Below are positions 1,252-7,874 of a stretch of 27,716 nucleotides of DNA, piece by piece (position 1 is the first letter of the stretch; every line of letters starts with the position of its first letter). This DNA is from a virus (lineage: Duplodnaviria; Heunggongvirae; Uroviricota; Caudoviricetes): the IMG/VR virus record IMGVR_UViG_2534681772_000017. One strand, 5' to 3'. Made by a program: the position numbers and the translations under genes. The notes beneath the pieces are model-generated. The model did not search any database. It worked only from the letters and a program-made list of their open reading frames with translations, and had not been told where the DNA came from.

Positions 1252-1656
1252 TTACTGCAAATCTTTCATTGTAGTAACATGCGTGTTCGACAAAATTGTG
1301 ATTTTAGACTGTTCTTCTTGTTCTTCTCCGGCCTTATCACAAGTTGCTTTTGGCTTCTCAAGCACATAACCCATAGCACTAAATTTATTGAGAATTCGAA
1401 CAGATGTAGTGTTTTTCAGATACGCAGTGTTTTCCTTATGTAGCCATGCAGGGGAACAAACGCTATAAACTGCGGTATCATAAATTTCAGGCGTAATACT
1501 TGCGGCATCCAAAACAACTGTAATCACGCCATTACTATCTTTTATCGACAGTGGTTGCATTTCGTTAAAGGATTTCTTCAGTACAGATAAGTTAGAGGGT
1601 TGAGCTGCTACTGTAAAAGAAGCGAGTAAAGCCAGAGCAAAAATAGAACGTTTCAT
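1252..1656 (-). CDS. Small secreted/periplasmic protein of unknown function (candidate lysogeny-expressed moron)
   Basis: Start refined to the internal Met (MKRSIFALALLASFTVAAQ...), which carries a classic Sec signal peptide and an AAGGA SD. The 134-aa product lies between cI and int on the same strand. Locally AT-rich compared with the rest of the prophage. No family recognised. Confidence 0.6.
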   Translation of the reverse strand: MKRSIFALALLASFTVAAQPSNLSVLKKSFNEMQPLSIKDSNGVITVVLDAASITPEIYDTAVYSVCSPAWLHKENTAYLKNTTSVRILNKFSAMGYVLEKPKATCDKAGEEQEEQSKITILSNTHVTTMKDLQ

Positions 1657-1669
1657 TATCGCATCATCC

Positions 1670-2512
1670 TTAGATATGTTTTTCCAGAGTAAATACAACA
1701 GCACCAGATGGTGTGATTTCTGATAGGTTGCATTCAAAATCAACAGACTTATTTGATAGCCTGACTTTATTACCCGGCAGTCGCACAACGTCGAAAACGT
1801 CGAACGCGCCATCTATCCCGATGAGCCAACGGCCATTGCCGATTTTGCATGCTGAATTATCGACAAGCCAAGATGAGCTAACGCCATCTACAAAAACCAA
1901 ATCATCAGAGTTAGCAGGAATCATTGATGGGTCAGGTTGCCAACGCCCAGCGTCTTTTAGCTCACCAGATTCAAGGCGGGATTTTTTTATCGTTAAAATG
2001 TCCGAAAAGCTAGCCTCCTTACTTTCTCGCATTTTCCCCTTTCCGGTCGCTAACCATTCCAGCGATACACCAGTATCAAGCGCGCATGTCACAACCACAT
2101 CACCGGGGAAGAAATCTCGTCTTACCCAGGTGCTGATAGTGCCTGAGGAGATATCCAACAAATCCCCAAGCTCCTTTTGCATTGTAAAACCATAGGCGTC
2201 AAGGATGCGCCTTAAAACAGGTTTTCCACCACTCGCCAAAATCTCGTCATAAAGTGCTTTTCCTTTCAACGGTGACGAATCTTGCAAATTCAAATTGGAA
2301 ATTTGACCAGTCAGCAGCCAGTTTAAATCAGCACCAGTATCTAATGAGCACTGAATGATGGCTTTGCCTGGAAAACTGTTTCGCTGAACCCAAGTGCTGA
2401 CGCTGTTTGACGGGACGCCAAGCACTTCCGCCAAAGCCTTTTGCGTGCTGACACCATACGCCGAACTTATCCGCTCAATCACATCTTGCGTATTCAAATC
2501 TTCATCATTCAT
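1670..2512 (-). CDS. cI: 186-type CI immunity repressor with tandemly duplicated N-terminal HTH domain
   Basis: 280 aa. Two consecutive copies of a Phage_CI_repr-like motif (ISSAYGVSTQKALAEVLGV...STWVQRNSFPG...CSLDTGADLNWLLTG and ILDAYGFTMQKELGDLLDI...STWVRRDFFPG...CALDTGVSLEWLATG), then a roughly 115-aa C-terminal domain. Divergent from the lytic operon, the usual immunity-region layout. Confidence 0.82.
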   Translation of the reverse strand: MNDEDLNTQDVIERISSAYGVSTQKALAEVLGVPSNSVSTWVQRNSFPGKAIIQCSLDTGADLNWLLTGQISNLNLQDSSPLKGKALYDEILASGGKPVLRRILDAYGFTMQKELGDLLDISSGTISTWVRRDFFPGDVVVTCALDTGVSLEWLATGKGKMRESKEASFSDILTIKKSRLESGELKDAGRWQPDPSMIPANSDDLVFVDGVSSSWLVDNSACKIGNGRWLIGIDGAFDVFDVVRLPGNKVRLSNKSVDFECNLSEITPSGAVVFTLEKHI

Positions 2513-2625
2513 TTATCAATCACTCAAAATCGATTTACAGGAACTCATTTTCGATTTAAAGTGGCATTCATCGACCAAGATGCACACCACTGCACTACAT
2601 TTCAAACAACAGGAGATAATGCGAT
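2513..2625. promoter_or_regulatory. Divergent immunity-region promoter/operator (pR/pL-like switch)
   Basis: 113-bp AT-rich gap between the divergent cI and apl-like genes. Contains the 10-bp palindrome AAATCGATTT (2527-2536), a second TCGATTT element 21 bp downstream (2551-2557) and a third TCGA core at 2571-2574. Confidence 0.6.
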
Positions 2626-2997
2626 ATGTCAGATGCAAAATCAATCTCGACGCACGACTCGCAAAACTCACAAAATCAAACTGTGCTGTTAGATCCAACG
2701 CAGTTTGATGCCATCGTTACCGCCATGCTTCCAGCTCTGCAGACAATGATTCGCTCCGCAATGTCCGACACCATGACAGTGAAAGACTTCGCCGCTACTC
2801 GCGGTGTTAGCGAGCGTCTGGTCTGGCAATGGCTCGATGAGGGCATCCTTCTCAAAGCTCCGACCAAAGACTTTTCCAACAAAGAGGAAGCCGCTAAACG
2901 AAGCCGAACCCTCGTAAACGTAAAAGCATGGCGCGATAAGCTGACTCAACAAGCGATTGATTGTCGCTACATCGACCAGCGCACCGCTCTTAACTGA
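2626..2997 (+). CDS. Apl/Cox-like small DNA-binding protein (lytic-switch regulator / excisionase-like)
   Basis: First gene of the rightward operon, divergent from cI. AGGAGA SD 9 nt upstream. Contains a probable HTH segment (TVKDFAATRGVSERLVWQWLDEGIL). Function assigned by position and motif, not strong identity. Confidence 0.5.
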   Translation: MSDAKSISTHDSQNSQNQTVLLDPTQFDAIVTAMLPALQTMIRSAMSDTMTVKDFAATRGVSERLVWQWLDEGILLKAPTKDFSNKEEAAKRSRTLVNVKAWRDKLTQQAIDCRYIDQRTALN

Positions 2998-3029
2998 ATT
3001 TGATTATGCAAGTTAGAGGGAATTTAACC

Positions 3030-3539
3030 ATGTTTGATTTTCAGGTTTCCAAACATCCCCACTATGACGATGCATGCCGCATTTTCGCGCAGCGTCACAA
3101 CATGGCGAAGCTGGCCGAGCGTGCGGGTATGAACGTTCAAACGTTACGTAACAAGCTCAACCCGGAACAGCCTCACCAGTTTACGCCGCCTGAATTGTGG
3201 CTACTGACTGACCTGACCGAAGACTCAACCCTCGTTGATGGTTTTTTGGCGCAGATTCATTGCCTGCCATGCGTGCCGGTTAATGAGCTGGCTAAAGACA
3301 AATTGCAGTCTTATGTCATGCGAGCAATGCGTGAACTCGGCGAGCTGGCGAGCGGTGCGGTATCTGATGAACGTCTGACCTCTGCCCGTAAGCACAACAT
3401 GATTGAAAGCGTTAATTCTGGCATTCGCATGTTGTCGTTGTCGGCGCTGGCGCTGCATGCGCGTCTGCAGACTAATCCCGCTATGTCGAGCGTCGTCGAT
3501 ACCATGAGCGGTATTGGCGCATCCTTCGGGCTGATTTGA
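3030..3539 (+). CDS. cII: Phage regulatory protein CII (186 CII / CP76 family)
   Basis: Start set at MFDFQVSKHPHYDD (SD GAGGGA 8 nt upstream), which closely resembles the 186 CII N-terminus as I recall it. Occupies the expected position after apl. Confidence 0.8.
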   Translation: MFDFQVSKHPHYDDACRIFAQRHNMAKLAERAGMNVQTLRNKLNPEQPHQFTPPELWLLTDLTEDSTLVDGFLAQIHCLPCVPVNELAKDKLQSYVMRAMRELGELASGAVSDERLTSARKHNMIESVNSGIRMLSLSALALHARLQTNPAMSSVVDTMSGIGASFGLI

Positions 3540-3546
3540 GGTGCGT

Positions 3547-3747
3547 ATGCTGAAAAGTGAACCGTCATTCGCGTCTCTGCTCGTTAAGCAAAGCCCTGGC
3601 ATGCACTACGGACACGGCTGGATCGCAGGTAAGGACGGCAAGCGCTGGCACCCGAGCCGCTCACAGGCTGATTTACTGGCTGGCCTCTCTACTCAAAAGC
3701 AGGGGGAATCATGGCTATCGAAGCTGTTTCCGCGACTGTTACGCTGA
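3547..3747 (+). CDS. Small early protein, possibly Fil-like (host filamentation / division inhibitor)
   Basis: 66-aa ORF with SD GAGGTG. Motif HYGHGWI...GKRWHP.RSQ..LL resembles Fil-family proteins of P2-like prophages as far as I recall; sits where 186 fil sits. Low certainty. Confidence 0.4.
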   Translation: MLKSEPSFASLLVKQSPGMHYGHGWIAGKDGKRWHPSRSQADLLAGLSTQKQGESWLSKLFPRLLR

Positions 3748-4049
3748 AAGCGGGTGAACGTCTGGCCGGTCTCAATCATGTAGCTGAATTGCGTGCGAGA
3801 TATTGGGGTGATAGCTGGAAAGAGGTCGAGCGTTTTGTCGATGATATGCGCGATAAACGCGATCCACTATTTGAAGAAAATAATCGGGCGCTGGCCGCTA
3901 TCTTCTTTCTGGCAAAAATACCGGCGGCTCGTCATGAGCTCGAATTAAGTGAGCTGACTACTGACGAGAAAAAGGCGCTTATTACAGCGATGAATCATTT
4001 TCGTGCAGTAGTGAGCTTATTTCCCAAACGGCTAACCATGCCGAATTAA
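3711..4049 (+). CDS. Hypothetical early protein (in the position of 186 dhr)
   Basis: 112-aa ORF with SD AGGGGGA directly upstream of the ATG. Overlaps the preceding ORF by 37 nt. No motif recognised. Confidence 0.45.
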   Translation: MAIEAVSATVTLKAGERLAGLNHVAELRARYWGDSWKEVERFVDDMRDKRDPLFEENNRALAAIFFLAKIPAARHELELSELTTDEKKALITAMNHFRAVVSLFPKRLTMPN

Positions 4050-4116
4050 TCCAAACAGAAATTTAATGGCGTAAACCCGCAGGGCTTCTTATTGCCCGAA
4101 ATCAGGAGAGTTAATT

Positions 4117-4344
4117 ATGCGTAATACCGAAATCCGTAGTTTTAACACTGATAGTGATGCGCTGGCCGTATTGCTGACCGATGCAAAAAAAGAGGAGCGT
4201 AAAGACCGCGCGCTCGCTGTTTCAATCCGTCTTGAGGCGCTGGCTATCCATATCACCAAAGAGGGCATGAGCGGCACCGAAGCTGCCGAACTGCTGCGCC
4301 GTGAAGCAACCCGCTTTGAGAATGAATCACAGGAGCTGCACTAA
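4117..4344 (+). CDS. Hypothetical small early protein (DUF2732-like)
   Basis: 75-aa ORF with SD AGGAGAG upstream. Its stop overlaps the next start (TAATG). Confidence 0.5.
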   Translation: MRNTEIRSFNTDSDALAVLLTDAKKEERKDRALAVSIRLEALAIHITKEGMSGTEAAELLRREATRFENESQELH

Positions 4345-4565
4345 TGGCCGACGCAATGGATTTTGCACAACAGCGTGAGCAGGAAGACCGCGAGCGCCAC
4401 ATCAACAACGCGCGCAGCCGTATCGCTGCGCCTTCTCGTTTCCTCTGCGAAGAATGTGACGCACCAATCCCGGAAGCTCGCCGCATTGCGATTCCGGGCG
4501 TGGCCTTTTGCGTGACCTGCCAGCAAATCGCAGAACTCAAATCTAAACATTACAGGGGTGTATAA
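4344..4565 (+). CDS. TraR/DksA-family C4 zinc-finger protein
   Basis: 73 aa with CEEC...(16 aa)...CVTC four-cysteine motif near the C-terminus, typical of phage TraR-like zinc fingers. Translationally coupled to its neighbours. Confidence 0.7.
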   Translation: MADAMDFAQQREQEDRERHINNARSRIAAPSRFLCEECDAPIPEARRIAIPGVAFCVTCQQIAELKSKHYRGV

Positions 4566-4838
4566 ATGGGTATACGTATCGAAGTCGGCGACAAATGGGT
4601 AATTACCAGTGACCAATATCAATTCATCCTGAATGAAAAGAAAGTCGCTCAATCCGGTAAGAAAGCTGGCGAGGAATGGCTCGACACCATCGGCTATTAC
4701 CCGAAGATTAACCAGCTTATTTCCGGGCTGATTCATCATCATATTCAGCAGTCATCAATTACCACGCTTGACGCAATGGCATCTGAAATTGAGCGTATCG
4801 GAGAAATGTGCGCCTCCTCTATCAAGGCGGTGGCATGA
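4566..4838 (+). CDS. Hypothetical early protein
   Basis: 90-aa ORF, start directly after the previous stop (TAAATG). Conserved position in P2-like early operons. Function unknown. Confidence 0.5.
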   Translation: MGIRIEVGDKWVITSDQYQFILNEKKVAQSGKKAGEEWLDTIGYYPKINQLISGLIHHHIQQSSITTLDAMASEIERIGEMCASSIKAVA

Positions 4839-5116
4839 GAAAAACACATCAACTAAAAATTCGGCCTGAGTTTTTTCAGGCTGTCATCAATGGAACAAAA
4901 AAAGCCGAGTTTCGCCGTGCTGACCGTGATTTTGCTGTAGGGGATTTACTTTGCTTAAACGAGTACGGAGCCTGCGTATATGACCCGAAAAAGGTCGGTT
5001 TTACCGGCGCTTTTGTCTACGTGCTGGTGACTCATGTAACTGACCTTAGCGAGTGGGCTCCCGGCTATGTGATGCTAAGCATACAGCGTAGACAAATGGG
5101 GGAACTATGCGGGTAA
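4835..5116 (+). CDS. ASCH/DUF3850-like small protein
   Basis: Start set at MRKTHQLKIRPEFF (ATGA overlap with the previous stop). Motif HQLKI..EFF..V..G.KKAEFRRADRDF.VGD.L fits the DUF3850/ASCH beta-barrel fold, which is predicted to bind RNA. Confidence 0.55.
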   Translation: MRKTHQLKIRPEFFQAVINGTKKAEFRRADRDFAVGDLLCLNEYGACVYDPKKVGFTGAFVYVLVTHVTDLSEWAPGYVMLSIQRRQMGELCG

Positions 5117-7341
5117 GCGTTAACTTTGCTTACCCGTGGAATGCCCCACGGTCGGCAATAGCCAGCCCATACCTTACATATGACCAACAGCATCGCCGCG
5201 ACCGTATGTTCGCGGCTTTGCTGCATGCGAGAAAAGTGCTTTCTCTCCAGCCCGAGTGCGTGCGCTTTGACGTTTATCGCACCGCTGCGGTGCTGGAGCA
5301 AAATCAGGGCAGTCAACGAGCCAATGCCTTTTTAATCAGCTTCTGCAAAAAGGCATTGCCACGTCTTGAACTGGTCGCAAAAAAATACGAGTGCGCGGGT
5401 ATCAACAGCAATGTATCAGCCGCTGTTTTCGATGGTCATTTTGATACCGAGCTTATGCAATATCTGGCGTCACGCATGGTTAATATGGTCGCCAGATATA
5501 ACCGCCTCCCTGACATGTCGCGCGCCGATATTGACCTGCTGGGCGCTGATATTGCTAATTTCATTCGCGCTGAACTGGCAGAGCATGACGACGCTGATTC
5601 TGATTTTGGTGAGCTGGCGACGCTGCATGGTTGGTATATGCGAGCAGGGTTAATTACGCTGCAGTTTGGCATTACTCCTCCGCATTGGGCGGGAACAACC
5701 ACAAAATACTTTGACCCGGATAAAGTTGCCCCGGCTATCGCTCGTATGTTTAACGATGTGTGGTGGCGTGGTCGCCTGCGTCGCATTGCGGCTGCATGGC
5801 GCGAACACCTGCAAATCGCAGTCGGAAATGTCAGCAAAAAACGACACGCATACGCGAGTAAAAACTGCGTGACCGACTGGCGTGAGCAAAAGCGCCGCAC
5901 GCGCGAGTTTCTCAAGGGGCTGGATCTCGAAGACGAAGACGGCAACCGCATCAGCCTGATTGAAAAATACGACGGTTCGGTCGCTAACCCTGCGATACGC
6001 CGCTGCGAGCTGATGACCCGCATCCGTGGGTTTGAAAACATCTGCAATGAGCTCGGTTATGTCGGTGAGTTTTACACCCTGACAGCACCGTCTAAATATC
6101 ACGCCACCACCAAAGCAGGCTACCGTAACAGTAAATGGAACGGAGCCAGCCCGTCGGACACGCAGAGTTATCTAACCGGCCTTTGGGCGCGCATTCGTGC
6201 CAAGTTGCACCGGGAAGAAATCCGCATTTTCGGCATACGTGTTGCCGAGCCTCATCACGACGGGACGCCTCACTGGCATATGCTTATGTTCATGCTGCCG
6301 GAAGACGTCGAGCGTGTGCGCCTCATCATTCGCGATTATGCGTGGGAGGAAGACCATCACGAACTGAGAAGCGATAAAGCCAAAAAGGCACGCTTTCACG
6401 CCGAGGCCATTGACCCGGAAAAAGGCAGCGCTACCGGCTATGTCGCTAAATACATTTCAAAAAATATCGACGGCTATGCTCTCGATGGTGAGACCGATGA
6501 CGAAAGCGGCGAACTACTGAAAGAGACAGCACCCGCCGTTTCAGCATGGGCGGCGCGCTGGCATATCCGTCAGTTTCAGTTTATCGGCGGTGCGCCGGTG
6601 ACGGTCTACCGTGAGTTGCGTCGTCTCGCCGATACCGAGACCGCGCACGGTCTGAGCGTTGAATTTGCCGCTGTCCATGATGCCGCTGACGCCGGTGACT
6701 GGGCTGGTTACGTTAATGCGCAGGGTGGGCCGTTTGTCCGTCGCGATGATTTGCAGGTGCGCACACTGTATGAACCGCGCGCTGATTTTAATCAGTATGG
6801 CGAGGAAACCGTCTGTATCCGTGGTGTTTACGACTCTGTTGTCGGCGCTGGTACCCCTATTTTAACCCGGTTAACGCAGTGGAAAATTGTGCCTAAGCGT
6901 GCCGTTGATTTGGCCGTTGACGTTAAGGGCGCTCCTGCGCCCTCTCGGAGTTCTGTCAATAACTGTACGGGAAGCGAAAGCGATCCACCGATACTGGATT
7001 TAACAAAACCGCTGAGTCGGCGTGAAAGACGAGAGCTGACGAACCGACTAAGGAAGCAAAAGCCAGCAATACGGCGAAAATTCATCCACGGAACGGATGA
7101 GCAAAACGCAGCTATAGCGAAAACTATCGACGAGATACATCTGACAACCGGCATTAATATCAGTCGGGGTGAAGCCCTGCACCTGATGGCCGGTGGTAAA
7201 AGTTGTTTTGATGGCAAATGGCTACGCGGAACGGCCAAAGGAGAAATATTTTCCGCTGCGCCATCGCATGAGGCTAAAGCTCGGAAAATCCTTAATCGTG
7301 TTGCGGCGATGGCTGAAGCATCAAAACCAATACATGATTAA
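5107..7341 (+). CDS. A: Replication initiation endonuclease, P2 gpA type (rolling-circle initiator)
   Basis: 744 aa. N-terminal YPWNAPR (P2 A has YAWNAPRE), HUH motif GTPHWHMLMF and the catalytic tyrosine motif GYVAKYISKNIDGYALDG. SD GGGGGA 4 nt before the ATG. Confidence 0.95.
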   Translation: MRVSVNFAYPWNAPRSAIASPYLTYDQQHRRDRMFAALLHARKVLSLQPECVRFDVYRTAAVLEQNQGSQRANAFLISFCKKALPRLELVAKKYECAGINSNVSAAVFDGHFDTELMQYLASRMVNMVARYNRLPDMSRADIDLLGADIANFIRAELAEHDDADSDFGELATLHGWYMRAGLITLQFGITPPHWAGTTTKYFDPDKVAPAIARMFNDVWWRGRLRRIAAAWREHLQIAVGNVSKKRHAYASKNCVTDWREQKRRTREFLKGLDLEDEDGNRISLIEKYDGSVANPAIRRCELMTRIRGFENICNELGYVGEFYTLTAPSKYHATTKAGYRNSKWNGASPSDTQSYLTGLWARIRAKLHREEIRIFGIRVAEPHHDGTPHWHMLMFMLPEDVERVRLIIRDYAWEEDHHELRSDKAKKARFHAEAIDPEKGSATGYVAKYISKNIDGYALDGETDDESGELLKETAPAVSAWAARWHIRQFQFIGGAPVTVYRELRRLADTETAHGLSVEFAAVHDAADAGDWAGYVNAQGGPFVRRDDLQVRTLYEPRADFNQYGEETVCIRGVYDSVVGAGTPILTRLTQWKIVPKRAVDLAVDVKGAPAPSRSSVNNCTGSESDPPILDLTKPLSRRERRELTNRLRKQKPAIRRKFIHGTDEQNAAIAKTIDEIHLTTGINISRGEALHLMAGGKSCFDGKWLRGTAKGEIFSAAPSHEAKARKILNRVAAMAEASKPIHD

Positions 7342-7640: not shown

Positions 7641-7874
7641 ATGAGAATCAATATCACGTTGGATAAAGAGCAAAAAATTAGTCAGGCAACGTTGGATGCG
7701 CTTGAGGCTGAGCTGTACCGCAATCTGCAACCTATTTACCCAAAGACCGCTATCCGCATTCGCAAGGGCTCCGCAAATGGCGTTGAGCTAAGCGGTTTGA
7801 AACTGGACGAAGATAAAAAACGAGTAATGGAAATCATGCAGCAGGTATGGGAGGACGATAGCTGGTTGCATTAA
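7641..7874 (+). CDS. DinI-family protein (DinI/Tum C-terminal domain-like)
   Basis: 77 aa (MRINITLDKEQKIS...LDALEAELYRNLQPIYP...EIMQQVWEDDSWLH) with the DinI-like pattern of an N-terminal MRIE/N beta strand and an acidic, Trp-containing C-terminal helix. In the same reading frame as the 7455 ORF. Confidence 0.8.
   Translation: MRINITLDKEQKISQATLDALEAELYRNLQPIYPKTAIRIRKGSANGVELSGLKLDEDKKRVMEIMQQVWEDDSWLH

Follow-up and report, generated by a model that had tools for sequence, protein, structure and literature searches.

The six small genes at positions 3547-5116 of the window, the 27,716-nt stretch of Caudoviricetes DNA analysed here (IMG/VR record IMGVR_UViG_2534681772_000017), very probably make up the central part of the early-lytic (pR-type) operon in a temperate peduovirus resembling 186 and PSP3. 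A single rightward transcript would start in the cI-cox gap and run through cox, cII and the six small genes into A, the gene of the replication initiator. The products of the six would fall into three classes: a conserved host-takeover core of Fil, a TraR-like protein and DUF2732; the occupant of a three-way alternative slot after Fil, here DUF5347 as the positional equivalent of the host-replication inhibitor Dhr; and optional cargo between TraR and A, here DUF5405 and a putative nucleic-acid-binding protein of the ASCH/DUF3850 type.

GenBank, Pfam and RefSeq annotation already contain this operon, its gene families and copies that are almost identical. At face value little is at stake, and for the TraR-like protein a homologue, P2 Orf82, has been characterised biochemically. 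What proves useful is the comparison, which yields an invariant, overlapping DUF2732-TraR pair across the phage group, a replaceable slot after Fil with three alternative occupants, and a TraR-to-A slot rich in DNA-modification genes, in which the stop of the last gene is nearly always coupled to the start of the replication initiator. They raise the questions of DUF2732 as a partner of TraR, of common ground between DUF5347 and Dhr, and of DUF3850 as an eraser or reader of modifications.

Gene order, coupling and conservation

A sequence-only reading of this DNA had placed six small ORFs between cII and A. We find the same six, all on the + strand, with lengths of 66, 112, 75, 73, 90 and 93 aa. 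The genes of the region are as follows:

2626..2997, + strand: cox-like first gene of the operon, PSP3-gp30-type Cox/Apl-like protein, 123 aa (phrog_3554)
3030..3539, + strand: cII, 186-type CP76 lysogeny activator (PF06892, 159 bits)
3547..3747, + strand: ORF1, Fil, 66 aa; conserved core at residues 1-50, C-terminal tail overlapping ORF2
3711..4049, + strand: ORF2, DUF5347, 112 aa; in the slot used by dhr in 186
4117..4344, + strand: ORF3, DUF2732, 75 aa; counterpart of 186 orf79 and P2 orf80
4344..4565, + strand: ORF4, TraR-like C4 zinc-finger protein, 73 aa; counterpart of 186 orf80 and P2 Orf82
4566..4838, + strand: ORF5, DUF5405, 90 aa; counterpart of 186 orf82 and P2 orf83
4835..5116, + strand: ORF6, DUF3850/ASCH (PUA-like), 93 aa; counterpart of P2 orf91, coupled to A
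5107..7341, + strand: gene A, rolling-circle replication initiator (PF05840, 439 bits; 89% identical to 186 A)

The start of ORF6 was set at ATG 4835 from its homologues; the mechanical ORF list has GTG 4808 (102 aa). The product of 2626..2997 gives a weak match to the Cox-like excisionase family, and its homologue in phage Midge is annotated Cox.

The same reading had proposed one translationally coupled string of six genes, joined by TAATG- and ATGA-type junctions. Such junctions are indeed present: ORF3 and ORF4 overlap by 1 nt (TAATG), the ATG of ORF5 directly follows the TAA of ORF4 (0 nt), ORF5 and ORF6 overlap by 4 nt (ATGA), and ORF6 overlaps A by 10 nt. Further upstream, a gap of 7 nt separates cII from ORF1, with a GAGG ribosome-binding site that overlaps the stop codon of cII, and ORF1 and ORF2 overlap by 37 nt. 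However, a non-coding, uncoupled gap of 67 nt between ORF2 and ORF3 breaks the string, and the six genes form two tightly coupled blocks: Fil with DUF5347, and DUF2732, TraR-like, DUF5405 and DUF3850 leading into A.

All six ORFs match Pfam families well above cut-off, and a codon-level comparison over 7-67 homologous loci per gene gave median dN/dS values of 0.09-0.20 across the six (0.12 for cII), which points to purifying selection on each of them. From the Pfam matches and these ratios together we take the six ORFs to be real genes. Their shortness (66-112 aa) and the several antisense ORFs of like size that overlap them would suit the explanation that some are chance reading frames, but strong PHROG as well as Pfam matches for every ORF, low dN/dS over many loci, and the maintenance of ribosome-binding sites and junction geometry speak against it. 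The conservation data refute this explanation, whose probability we regard as negligible.

The closest relatives carry the region nearly unchanged. Escherichia phage Midge (PV287706) is 92.9% identical over 2.9 kb and has the same six genes, annotated and in the same order, with only point differences; Klebsiella RCIP0057 is 92.2% identical, and these two and the Yersinia vB_YpM phages show 92-93% nucleotide identity across the region. Many other relatives diverge in the cargo segment, with at least 80% query coverage in only 13 of 39 phage records. The region also has matches in 171 of 5426 complete E. coli genomes, always chromosomal, and NCBI annotation already names all six families. Across 58 related operons the core genes recur almost without exception (DUF2732 in 58, TraR in 58 and Fil in 54).

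The early lytic operon of 186 (NC_001317) reads apl, cII, fil, dhr, tR1, orf79, orf80, orf81, orf82, orf84, A, and shares with the window the order cII, fil, tR1-type spacer, DUF2732, TraR, DUF5405, A; the Fil core is 88% identical, A 89%, the tM1 hairpin is identical, and in both the last gene is coupled to A. The window differs in its PSP3-type immunity region (280-aa CI, 123-aa Cox-like protein), in carrying DUF5347 in place of dhr, in lacking the DnaQ-like orf81, and in having DUF3850 rather than the PAPS-reductase orf84 as the A-coupled gene. The P2 early operon (NC_001895) reads cox, orf78, B, terminator, orf80, orf81, orf82, orf83, A, orf91. It shares the succession of a terminator (a terminator-like spacer in the window), DUF2732, TraR, DUF5405 and A, and two of its products, Orf82 and that of orf91, are homologues of the TraR-like protein (51% identity) and of DUF3850 (45% identity). 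Unlike the window, P2 lacks cII and Fil proper, although the N-terminus of orf78 is loosely Fil-like by eye; it carries gene B, has orf81 inserted between DUF2732 and TraR, and has its DUF3850 gene downstream of A.

Candidate promoter, spacer and hairpins

The signals that may govern transcription of the operon are as follows:

2534..2562, + strand: candidate pR-like early promoter, TTTACA-17-TAAAGT in the cI-cox gap, consensus match 9/12
4050..4116, + strand: tR1-type spacer, 67 nt, conserved; aligns with the annotated tR1 terminator region of 186
4068-4081, + strand: spacer hairpin GGCG-TAAACC-CGCA, followed by GGGC-TTCTTATT-GCCC at 4082-4097
4104-4108, + strand: Shine-Dalgarno sequence AGGAG of ORF3, within the spacer
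5195..5222, + strand: tM1-type hairpin, GCCGCGA-ccgtatgt-TCGCGGC then TTTGCT, 89 nt inside A

The assignment of the six genes to an early operon is supported by the promoter scan and by a gene order that follows 186, PSP3 and P2. The site at 2534-2562 is the only + strand sigma-70-like site within 2400-5600, its position corresponds to that of pR in the 186 record, and it is the likely start of the operon.

The core of the tR1-type spacer is near-invariant among 67 distinct sequences. Its stem is paired in 98.5% of the cells compared, and a double change from G-C to A-U in 4 sequences appears to be compensatory; P2 has a different stem at this position. The hairpin has only 4 bp, and in the window a C-to-A change at 4081 breaks the outer pair. 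The terminator scan made no call at this hairpin, and the folding z-score of the spacer (-0.34) is no better than that of shuffled sequence, so that it would be at best a weak terminator. A weak hairpin of the tR1 type may be what splits the operon into its two blocks.

The tM1-type hairpin of the window has exactly the sequence of the 28-nt tM1 feature in the 186 annotation, and divergent loci keep a hairpin at this position with differing sequences. According to the 186 record (NC_001317), tM1 is the expected terminator of lytic transcripts when A is untranslated, and A appears to be translated only if translation runs to the end of orf84. Since translation of A is coupled to that of the last cargo gene, ribosomes would enter A and cover the tM1 hairpin. 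Rfam returned no family at gathering score anywhere in the window; the sole sub-threshold match in 2400-5400, to a snoRNA, was dismissed as chance.

Fil, the slot after it, and the DUF2732-TraR pair

ORF1, which the sequence-only reading had guessed to be Fil-like, matches PF10893 with 81.9 bits (cut-off 25) and phrog_816, 'cell division inhibitor', with an E value of 2.7e-36. It is identical to 186 Fil at 44 of 50 residues (88% over residues 1-50), has a median dN/dS of 0.19, and lies directly after cII, as Fil does in 186, PSP3 and 53 related operons. By these similarities ORF1 qualifies as a true Fil, a putative cell-division inhibitor of the 186 type. The 186 record (NC_001317) states that Fil overexpression blocks cell division, and Fil of the window would act on the host in the same way; a literature search returned no mechanistic paper on Fil or Dhr.

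The slot that follows Fil is occupied by DUF5347 in 34 of the 58 related operons, by U3 (an unnamed family of about 125 aa) in 19, and by 186 Dhr in 5. The earlier mention of dhr among the early genes does not apply to the window: ORF2 occupies the dhr position but gave no BLASTP alignment with Dhr at E <= 100, and the two belong to different PHROGs (phrog_602 for ORF2, phrog_6069 for Dhr). ORF2 shares with Dhr only the genomic slot. For U3 as a possible divergent DUF5347, hhalign gave a 29-column C-terminal match at 25% probability, and an exhaustive search did not recover U3. ORF2 is a small helical protein. Two database entries (P0003 and P0042) join Fil and DUF5347 into one protein. One additional G in the run of Gs ahead of the ORF2 start explains them; there is no slippery heptamer, and a programmed frameshift was considered and rejected.

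The second block opens with ORF3, which matches PF10809 with 106 bits, and ORF4. DUF2732 homologues form 1062 clusters at E <= 0.001, of which the 120 listed are single-domain proteins of 75-77 aa, and the matches listed comprise close relatives only. No characterised homologue was found for DUF5347, DUF2732 or DUF5405, whose PDB sequence matches were spurious only, and a literature search on the three family names returned incidental mentions. The spurious PDB matches, from single-sequence or profile searches with ORF1, ORF2, ORF3 and ORF5, were to designed Kelch repeats, MamM, protein A repeats and galectin-8.

ORF4 had been guessed to be a TraR/DksA zinc-finger protein, and the profiles agree: it matches PF01258 with 42.8 bits (cut-off 24.9) and TIGR02419 with 76 bits (cut-off 59.7), and it matches the F-plasmid TraR chains of PDB entries 5w1s and 6n57 with E values of about 5e-11, residues 3-70 aligning to TraR of 5w1s. 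Its 73 aa are a TraR-like size, without the DksA coiled coil. The N-terminus, MADAMDFA, supplies D3, D6 and A8 of the DxxDxA motif, and the two aspartates are invariant among ORF4, F TraR and the homologues in 186, P2 and PSP3. The zinc-ribbon cysteines C35, C38, C56 and C59 are also invariant, and the conserved PIPxARR stretch reads PIPEARR, as in F TraR. ORF4 resembles F-plasmid TraR and lambda Orf73 in its length, in the position of DxxDxA at residues 3-8, in its C4 zinc ribbon and in PIPEARR, but it is encoded in a phage early operon, whereas their genes are in a transfer operon and in the exo-xis region, respectively. It is 51% identical to P2 Orf82 and 41% to F TraR; P2 Orf82 lacks the Ala of DxxDxA (PMC9239242), which ORF4 keeps.

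The DxxDxA motif reaches the RNA polymerase active site, and purified P2 Orf82 binds the DksA site of RNA polymerase, inhibits rrnB P1 with an IC50 of 250 nM and complements a dksA-null strain (PMC9239242). By analogy, ORF4 is predicted to bind in the RNA polymerase secondary channel and inhibit rRNA promoters without ppGpp: its acidic DxxDxA tip would project into the channel and shut down promoters of rRNA and ribosomal-protein genes. The statement that none of the six genes can be assigned a function was too strong, given that P2 Orf82, of the ORF4 family, binds RNA polymerase (PMC9239242) and that the 186 record gives an effect for Fil.

In our model DUF2732 is the invariably co-inherited upstream neighbour of the TraR-like gene, the two overlapping stop to start. 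All 58 captured operons have both genes, and the DUF2732-TraR junction is a TAATG with a 1-nt overlap in 72 of 72 loci. This constancy would also fit a two-protein module in which DUF2732 binds and modulates TraR, as QisA does in vibriophage VP882. There the gene of gp60 (QisA) immediately precedes the TraR gene, overlapping it by 4 nt, and the QisA-TraR complex arrests host growth (bioRxiv 10.64898/2026.07.27.740977). However, no similarity could be detected between QisA (199 aa) and DUF2732; gp60 resembles neither ORF3 nor cII, and only its overlapping upstream position is analogous. In P2, orf81 sits between the two genes, and Orf82 alone is active in vitro (PMC9239242). One locus has DUF2732 without TraR (L052) and another TraR without DUF2732 (L059). 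Since all loci examined come from related phages, the co-occurrence may reflect only shared descent, and we consider a functional module rather unlikely.

Cargo between the TraR-like gene and A

We read ORF5 and ORF6 as optional cargo in the early-lytic operon. ORF5 matches PF17399 with 69.7 bits; its AlphaFold2 model has a pLDDT of 56.5, too low for a fold search, and the matches of a PDB profile search down to E 0.0036 were all to galectin-8 chains and were judged spurious.

The guess that ORF6 is an ASCH/DUF3850-like protein is borne out by matches to PF12961 (70.8 bits, cut-off 22.9) and PF04266 (24.1 bits, cut-off 21.2) and by similarity of residues 4-83 to PDB 3iuw (E 2.7e-8). The ASCH octapeptide GxKxxExR is intact (GTKKAEFR, residues 20-27, with G20, K22, E25 and R27) and recurs in each of the 11 full-length homologues examined, those of 10 loci and P2 orf91. 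ORF6 is accordingly classified, by sequence, as an ASCH/DUF3850 member of the PUA-like clan. Among characterised or solved ASCH proteins (3iuw, the ac4C amidohydrolases YqfB and TthASCH, and the ribonuclease ZmASCH), ORF6 aligns end to end with 3iuw, and its octapeptide belongs to the 'GKER' class (bioRxiv 10.64898/2026.02.27.708502). It differs in belonging to the phage-enriched DUF3850 branch and in its length (93 aa, compared with 121 aa for TthASCH). RNA binding, ac4C amidohydrolase or nuclease activity has been reported in other ASCH branches (bioRxiv 10.64898/2026.02.27.708502; PMC5615036), and in other ASCH proteins deacetylation of tRNA ac4C reportedly requires the Lys/Glu dyad (bioRxiv 10.64898/2026.02.27.708502). 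ORF6, with this motif intact, may bind nucleic acid.

The contents of the TraR-to-A slot vary widely among relatives: it may be empty or hold Dam, Dcm, N6 or N4 methyltransferases, a phrog_887 protein ('queuine tRNA-ribosyltransferase', which we infer to be DpdA-like), PAPS-reductase, DndB, a DnaQ-like exonuclease, DUF5405 or DUF3850. Dam is present in 18 of 58 operons, DUF5405 in 15 and DUF3850 in 10, and 17 of 57 carry no cargo at all. PSP3 gp35, despite a forced alignment, is unrelated to DUF5405 and DUF3850.

These contents bear on an anti-defence island, in which one or more of the small proteins, especially the swappable ORF2, ORF5 and ORF6, would neutralise host immunity, or ORF6 would edit or read nucleic-acid modifications and so escape restriction-type defences. 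ORF2, ORF5 and ORF6 do take the variable positions of an otherwise fixed operon, and the classical self-protection and DNA-modification genes in the slot (Dam in 18 of 58, Dcm, N6/N4 methyltransferase, phrog_887, PAPS-reductase and DndB) include neighbours of DUF3850 itself, which adjoins DndB and Dam at one locus (L055) and Dam and Dcm at another (L066). ORF6 retains the ASCH Lys/Glu dyad, and for phage fusions of ParB with DUF3850 a role against defence has been suggested, as speculation, in a PNAS survey of 2025 (PMC12704722). On the other side, no similarity to characterised anti-defence proteins was found, the profile library searched being PADLOC, which covers defence rather than anti-defence systems: ORF1-ORF5 had no match in it, and ORF6 had two short ones over residues 6-30 of the ASCH motif (E 7e-5, PDC-M11B, and 1.3e-4), which are not significant. 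The 186 record marks orf79-orf84 as not essential, including the homologues of DUF2732, TraR and DUF5405; the 17 cargo-free operons of 57 do without such genes; positional guilt is weak in mosaic phage genomes; and the ac4C assays covered ASCH branches other than DUF3850. We hold an anti-defence island to be unlikely.

A narrower proposal, which we find doubtful, is that the TraR-to-A interval is a hotspot at which genes for nucleic-acid modification and self-protection are carried as cargo, and where ORF6, possibly with DUF5405, would be an enzyme that erases or reads a base modification (ac4C in tRNA, or an N4-acyl or other mark in DNA), redirecting host translation or evading modification-dependent defence.

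ORF5 and/or ORF6 might instead be accessory replication factors that assist the A protein. Their position is directly before A, to which they are coupled, and PHROGs gives the label 'replication initiation protein' to the DUF5405 family (phrog_154) and to the related P2 orf81 family (phrog_265). Yet no experiment behind the label could be traced. All 58 operons encode A, but 43 of them lack DUF5405 and 48 lack DUF3850; the 186 record lists orf82, which is homologous to DUF5405, as non-essential, and in P2 the DUF3850 gene is downstream of A. A replication role is, in our estimate, quite improbable.

Under the preferred reading, that of interchangeable cargo in an early-lytic operon, the near-constant element of the slot is its junction with the replication gene: whichever gene is last, its stop lies -11 to +2 nt from the start of A, with exceptions for gp35 (5 loci, +83 to +107) and U18 (2 loci, +6).

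Gene content and relatives of the early operon

The stretch of six small genes between cII and the replication initiator gene A is an ordinary, previously annotated early operon of a 186-like prophage. In a nucleotide search, the 2.9 kb spanning these genes showed 92.9% identity to Escherichia phage Midge (PV287706), 92-93% to Klebsiella and Yersinia phages and 86% to Salmonella phage PSP3, and Midge has the identical six genes in identical order, already annotated. The backbone is also that of the 186 (NC_001317) and P2 (NC_001895) reference records: 186 displays the order apl, cII, fil, dhr, tR1, orf79 (DUF2732), orf80 (TraR-like), orf81 (exonuclease), orf82 (DUF5405), orf84 (PAPS reductase), A, and P2 the order cox, orf78, B, terminator, orf80, orf81, orf82, orf83, A, orf91 (DUF3850). 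The window further encodes an integrase, a PSP3-type CI, a portal protein and, after A, a DinI-like protein, and has a promoter-like site in the cI-cox gap (2534-2562). In a set of 5426 complete E. coli genomes, 171 contain a match to the region, chromosomal in every case and with all six families already named by RefSeq; only 2 of these reach at least 80% query coverage, because the cargo (the genes between the TraR gene and A) is mosaic.

Genes of the early operon; each of ORF1-ORF6 has a Pfam match far over the cut-off to the family named
3030-3539, + strand: cII
3547-3747, + strand: ORF1, Phage_186_Fil, 66 aa
3711-4049, + strand: ORF2, DUF5347, 112 aa
4117-4344, + strand: ORF3, DUF2732, 75 aa
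4344-4565, + strand: ORF4, zf-dksA_traR, 73 aa
4566-4838, + strand: ORF5, DUF5405, 90 aa
4835-5116, + strand: ORF6, DUF3850/ASCH, 93 aa
5107-7341, + strand: A, replication initiator

The sequence-only reading had described six translationally coupled genes of 66 to 112 aa, including a possible Fil-like, a TraR/DksA and an ASCH/DUF3850-like protein. The sizes (ORF1 shortest, ORF2 longest) and, by the Pfam matches, the three families are right, and all six genes are present, but they form two coupled blocks rather than one. Read from the sequence, cII and ORF1 are 7 nt apart, with the ribosome-binding site sitting over the cII stop, and ORF1 and ORF2 overlap by 37 nt; beyond a 67-nt non-coding spacer between ORF2 and ORF3, the ORF3/ORF4 junction is TAATG, the ORF5 ATG immediately follows the ORF4 TAA, the ORF5/ORF6 junction is ATGA and ORF6 overlaps A by 10 nt. 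Homologue comparison places the starts of ORF1 and ORF6 at ATG 3547 and ATG 4835, discounting an upstream GTG in each case. When each gene's codons in related IMG/VR loci were compared with the window copy, median dN/dS was 0.09-0.20 for all six ORFs and similar for cII (0.12). Given these values and the strong Pfam matches, ORF1-ORF6 are real genes.

Just downstream of A, the DinI-like gene (7641-7874, + strand; PF06183, 84 bits) occupies the place that in 186 is taken by tum, the antirepressor gene under SOS control. Between int and cI, an ORF at 1252-1812 (- strand) has a signal-peptide-like N-terminus and a Midge homologue annotated as a DUF2511 periplasmic protein, and is likely a lysogenic-conversion gene; a Pfam scan of 1252-1665 returned no match.

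Core genes, a replaceable slot and optional cargo

We took 80 related loci from IMG/VR by alignment of A proteins and, in each, called the + strand ORFs that precede A. ORFs were first labelled by matches to window, 186, P2 and PSP3 proteins; those without a match were grouped by all-against-all clustering, and cluster representatives were scanned against Pfam and PHROGs. Architectures were counted in the 58 operons recovered over the whole stretch between cox/apl and A.

Gene occurrence across these operons identifies ORF1, ORF3 and ORF4 as core genes, ORF2 as the occupant of a replaceable slot, and ORF5 and ORF6 as optional cargo. TraR and DUF2732 are each present in 58/58, Fil in 54/58 and cII in 53/58. 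Three genes alternate in the slot after Fil, with one and only one of them in every operon: DUF5347 in 34, U3 (phrog_17301, ~125 aa) in 19 and Dhr in 5. Gene content between TraR and A is highly variable: Dam-type methyltransferase (18), DUF5405 (15), DUF3850 (10), DnaQ-like exonuclease (7), PAPS reductase (5), phrog_887 “queuine tRNA-ribosyltransferase” (4; presumably DpdA-like), the PSP3 gene gp35 (4), C5 methyltransferase (3), and one each of N6/N4 methyltransferase, DndB, P2orf81 and the unnamed clusters U58 and U18. Of 57 loci in which the segment from Fil to TraR is complete, 17 lack cargo, and the exact architecture of the window recurs in 2/58 operons.

Across the related loci (L005-L084), the TraR-to-A segment (window 4566-5116) is a cargo hotspot for Dam, Dcm and N6/N4 methyltransferases, phrog_887, PAPS-reductase, DndB and DnaQ-like exonuclease. 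A sublineage (L038-L048 and L079-L082) is without cII and Fil and has the order cox, DUF5347, DUF2732, TraR, A.

The tR1-like spacer and coupling into A

The spacer between the two blocks (4050-4116, 67 nt) aligns with the 186 terminator tR1. Among 67 distinct sequences, the core GGCGTAAACCCGCCGGGC...TTGCC hardly varies, and the spacer is conserved more than the genes on either side. The 4-bp stem is paired in 98.5% of cells, with a G-C to A-U double change in four sequences; in P2 a different stem stands here, with the same T-rich tail after it. Only the window has A in place of C at position 4081, so that the outer pair of the stem is lost. The hairpin is weak, as a terminator scan did not call the spacer and its folding does not exceed that of shuffled sequence. 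By analogy with the 186 annotation, the spacer would act as a terminator with read-through.

The DUF2732/TraR junction is TAATG in 72/72 loci. The gene preceding A is almost always start/stop-coupled to it: whichever type of gene this is, its stop falls between -11 and +2 nt relative to the A start, the exceptions being gp35 (5 loci, +83 to +107) and U18 (2 loci, +6). According to the 186 record (NC_001317), translation of A appears to need translation through the end of orf84, and tM1, which lies within the beginning of A, would be the terminator for lytic transcripts if A is untranslated. The 28-nt tM1 sequence of 186 is present and identical in the window at 5195-5222, inside the 5' end of A. 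In divergent relatives these codons still form a hairpin, built from other sequences, suggesting that RNA structure is under selection inside the A coding sequence.

Predicted functions of the six products

Residues 1-50 of ORF1 share 88% identity with 186 Fil, and the tail, which overlaps ORF2, is unlike it. The sole functional statement found for Fil is that of the 186 record (NC_001317), “overexpression blocks cell division”. ORF2 displays no detectable similarity to 186 Dhr, and its family is narrow, with 72 representative clusters in a search of 1.84 billion proteins. Public databases contain Fil-DUF5347 fusion proteins of 147-167 aa (P0003, P0042), in which the frame changes at or near the G-run that is the ORF2 ribosome-binding site (window 3702-3706); these may be artefacts of sequencing or genuine slippage variants. 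In P0362 (213 aa) the DUF5347 domain is duplicated in tandem in one polypeptide, hinting that the single-domain protein may act as a dimer. The N-terminus of P2 Orf78 (L004 1792-1962), EPxxxxxLLxxxSP, resembles the Fil start by eye only, and its PHROG differs from that of Fil.

ORF4 carries DxxDxA (D3, D6, A8), four cysteines and a PIPEARR stretch, is 51% identical to P2 Orf82 and 41% to F TraR, and matches TraR chains from structures solved on RNA polymerase. Purified P2 Orf82 and DksA compete for RNA polymerase, and Orf82 inhibits rrnB P1 (IC50 250 nM) and complements a dksA-null strain; its lower activity was ascribed partly to the absent motif Ala (PMC9239242), which ORF4 possesses. With fair confidence, these motifs, the structural match and the characterized homologue point to ORF4 as an RNA polymerase secondary-channel regulator. 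The earlier view that none of the six could be assigned a function was thus too pessimistic for TraR, given the Orf82 data, and for Fil, given the 186 record.

The DUF2732 family of ORF3 comprises 1062 clusters, and the 120 members listed are single-domain proteins of 75-77 aa. DUF2732 could conceivably be a partner of TraR, by analogy with VP882, in which TraR is immediately preceded by the gene for QisA (gp60), a protein that binds TraR and is required for full growth arrest (bioRxiv 10.64898/2026.07.27.740977). However, DUF2732 and QisA have no sequence relationship, P2 has an extra gene between the DUF2732 and TraR genes, and single loci have one of the two genes without its partner.

The alignment of ORF6 with PDB 3iuw runs end to end, and ORF6 contains the ASCH octapeptide GTKKAEFR; the octapeptide is present in 11/11 full-length homologues checked. 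According to a 2026 preprint that assayed members of other ASCH branches and none of DUF3850, tRNA ac4C deacetylation by these proteins requires the Lys and Glu of this motif (bioRxiv 10.64898/2026.02.27.708502), and a 2025 survey described phage ParB-DUF3850 fusions, only speculating upon their role (PMC12704722). One might speculate that the cargo genes are anti-defence or modification-related: they share their position with methyltransferase, queuine-tRNA-ribosyltransferase-type, PAPS-reductase and DndB genes, and the ORF6 motif is intact, although a profile search against known defence systems gave no match apart from two short hits over the ORF6 motif region (residues 6-30). For ORF5 (DUF5405), structure prediction with AlphaFold2 yielded no usable model (pLDDT 56.5), and its PHROG label, “replication initiation protein”, has no traceable basis. 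DUF5405 variants of 157 aa (P0178, P0194 and others; L021, L029) have a C-terminal DUF7415 extension and are encoded directly before A.
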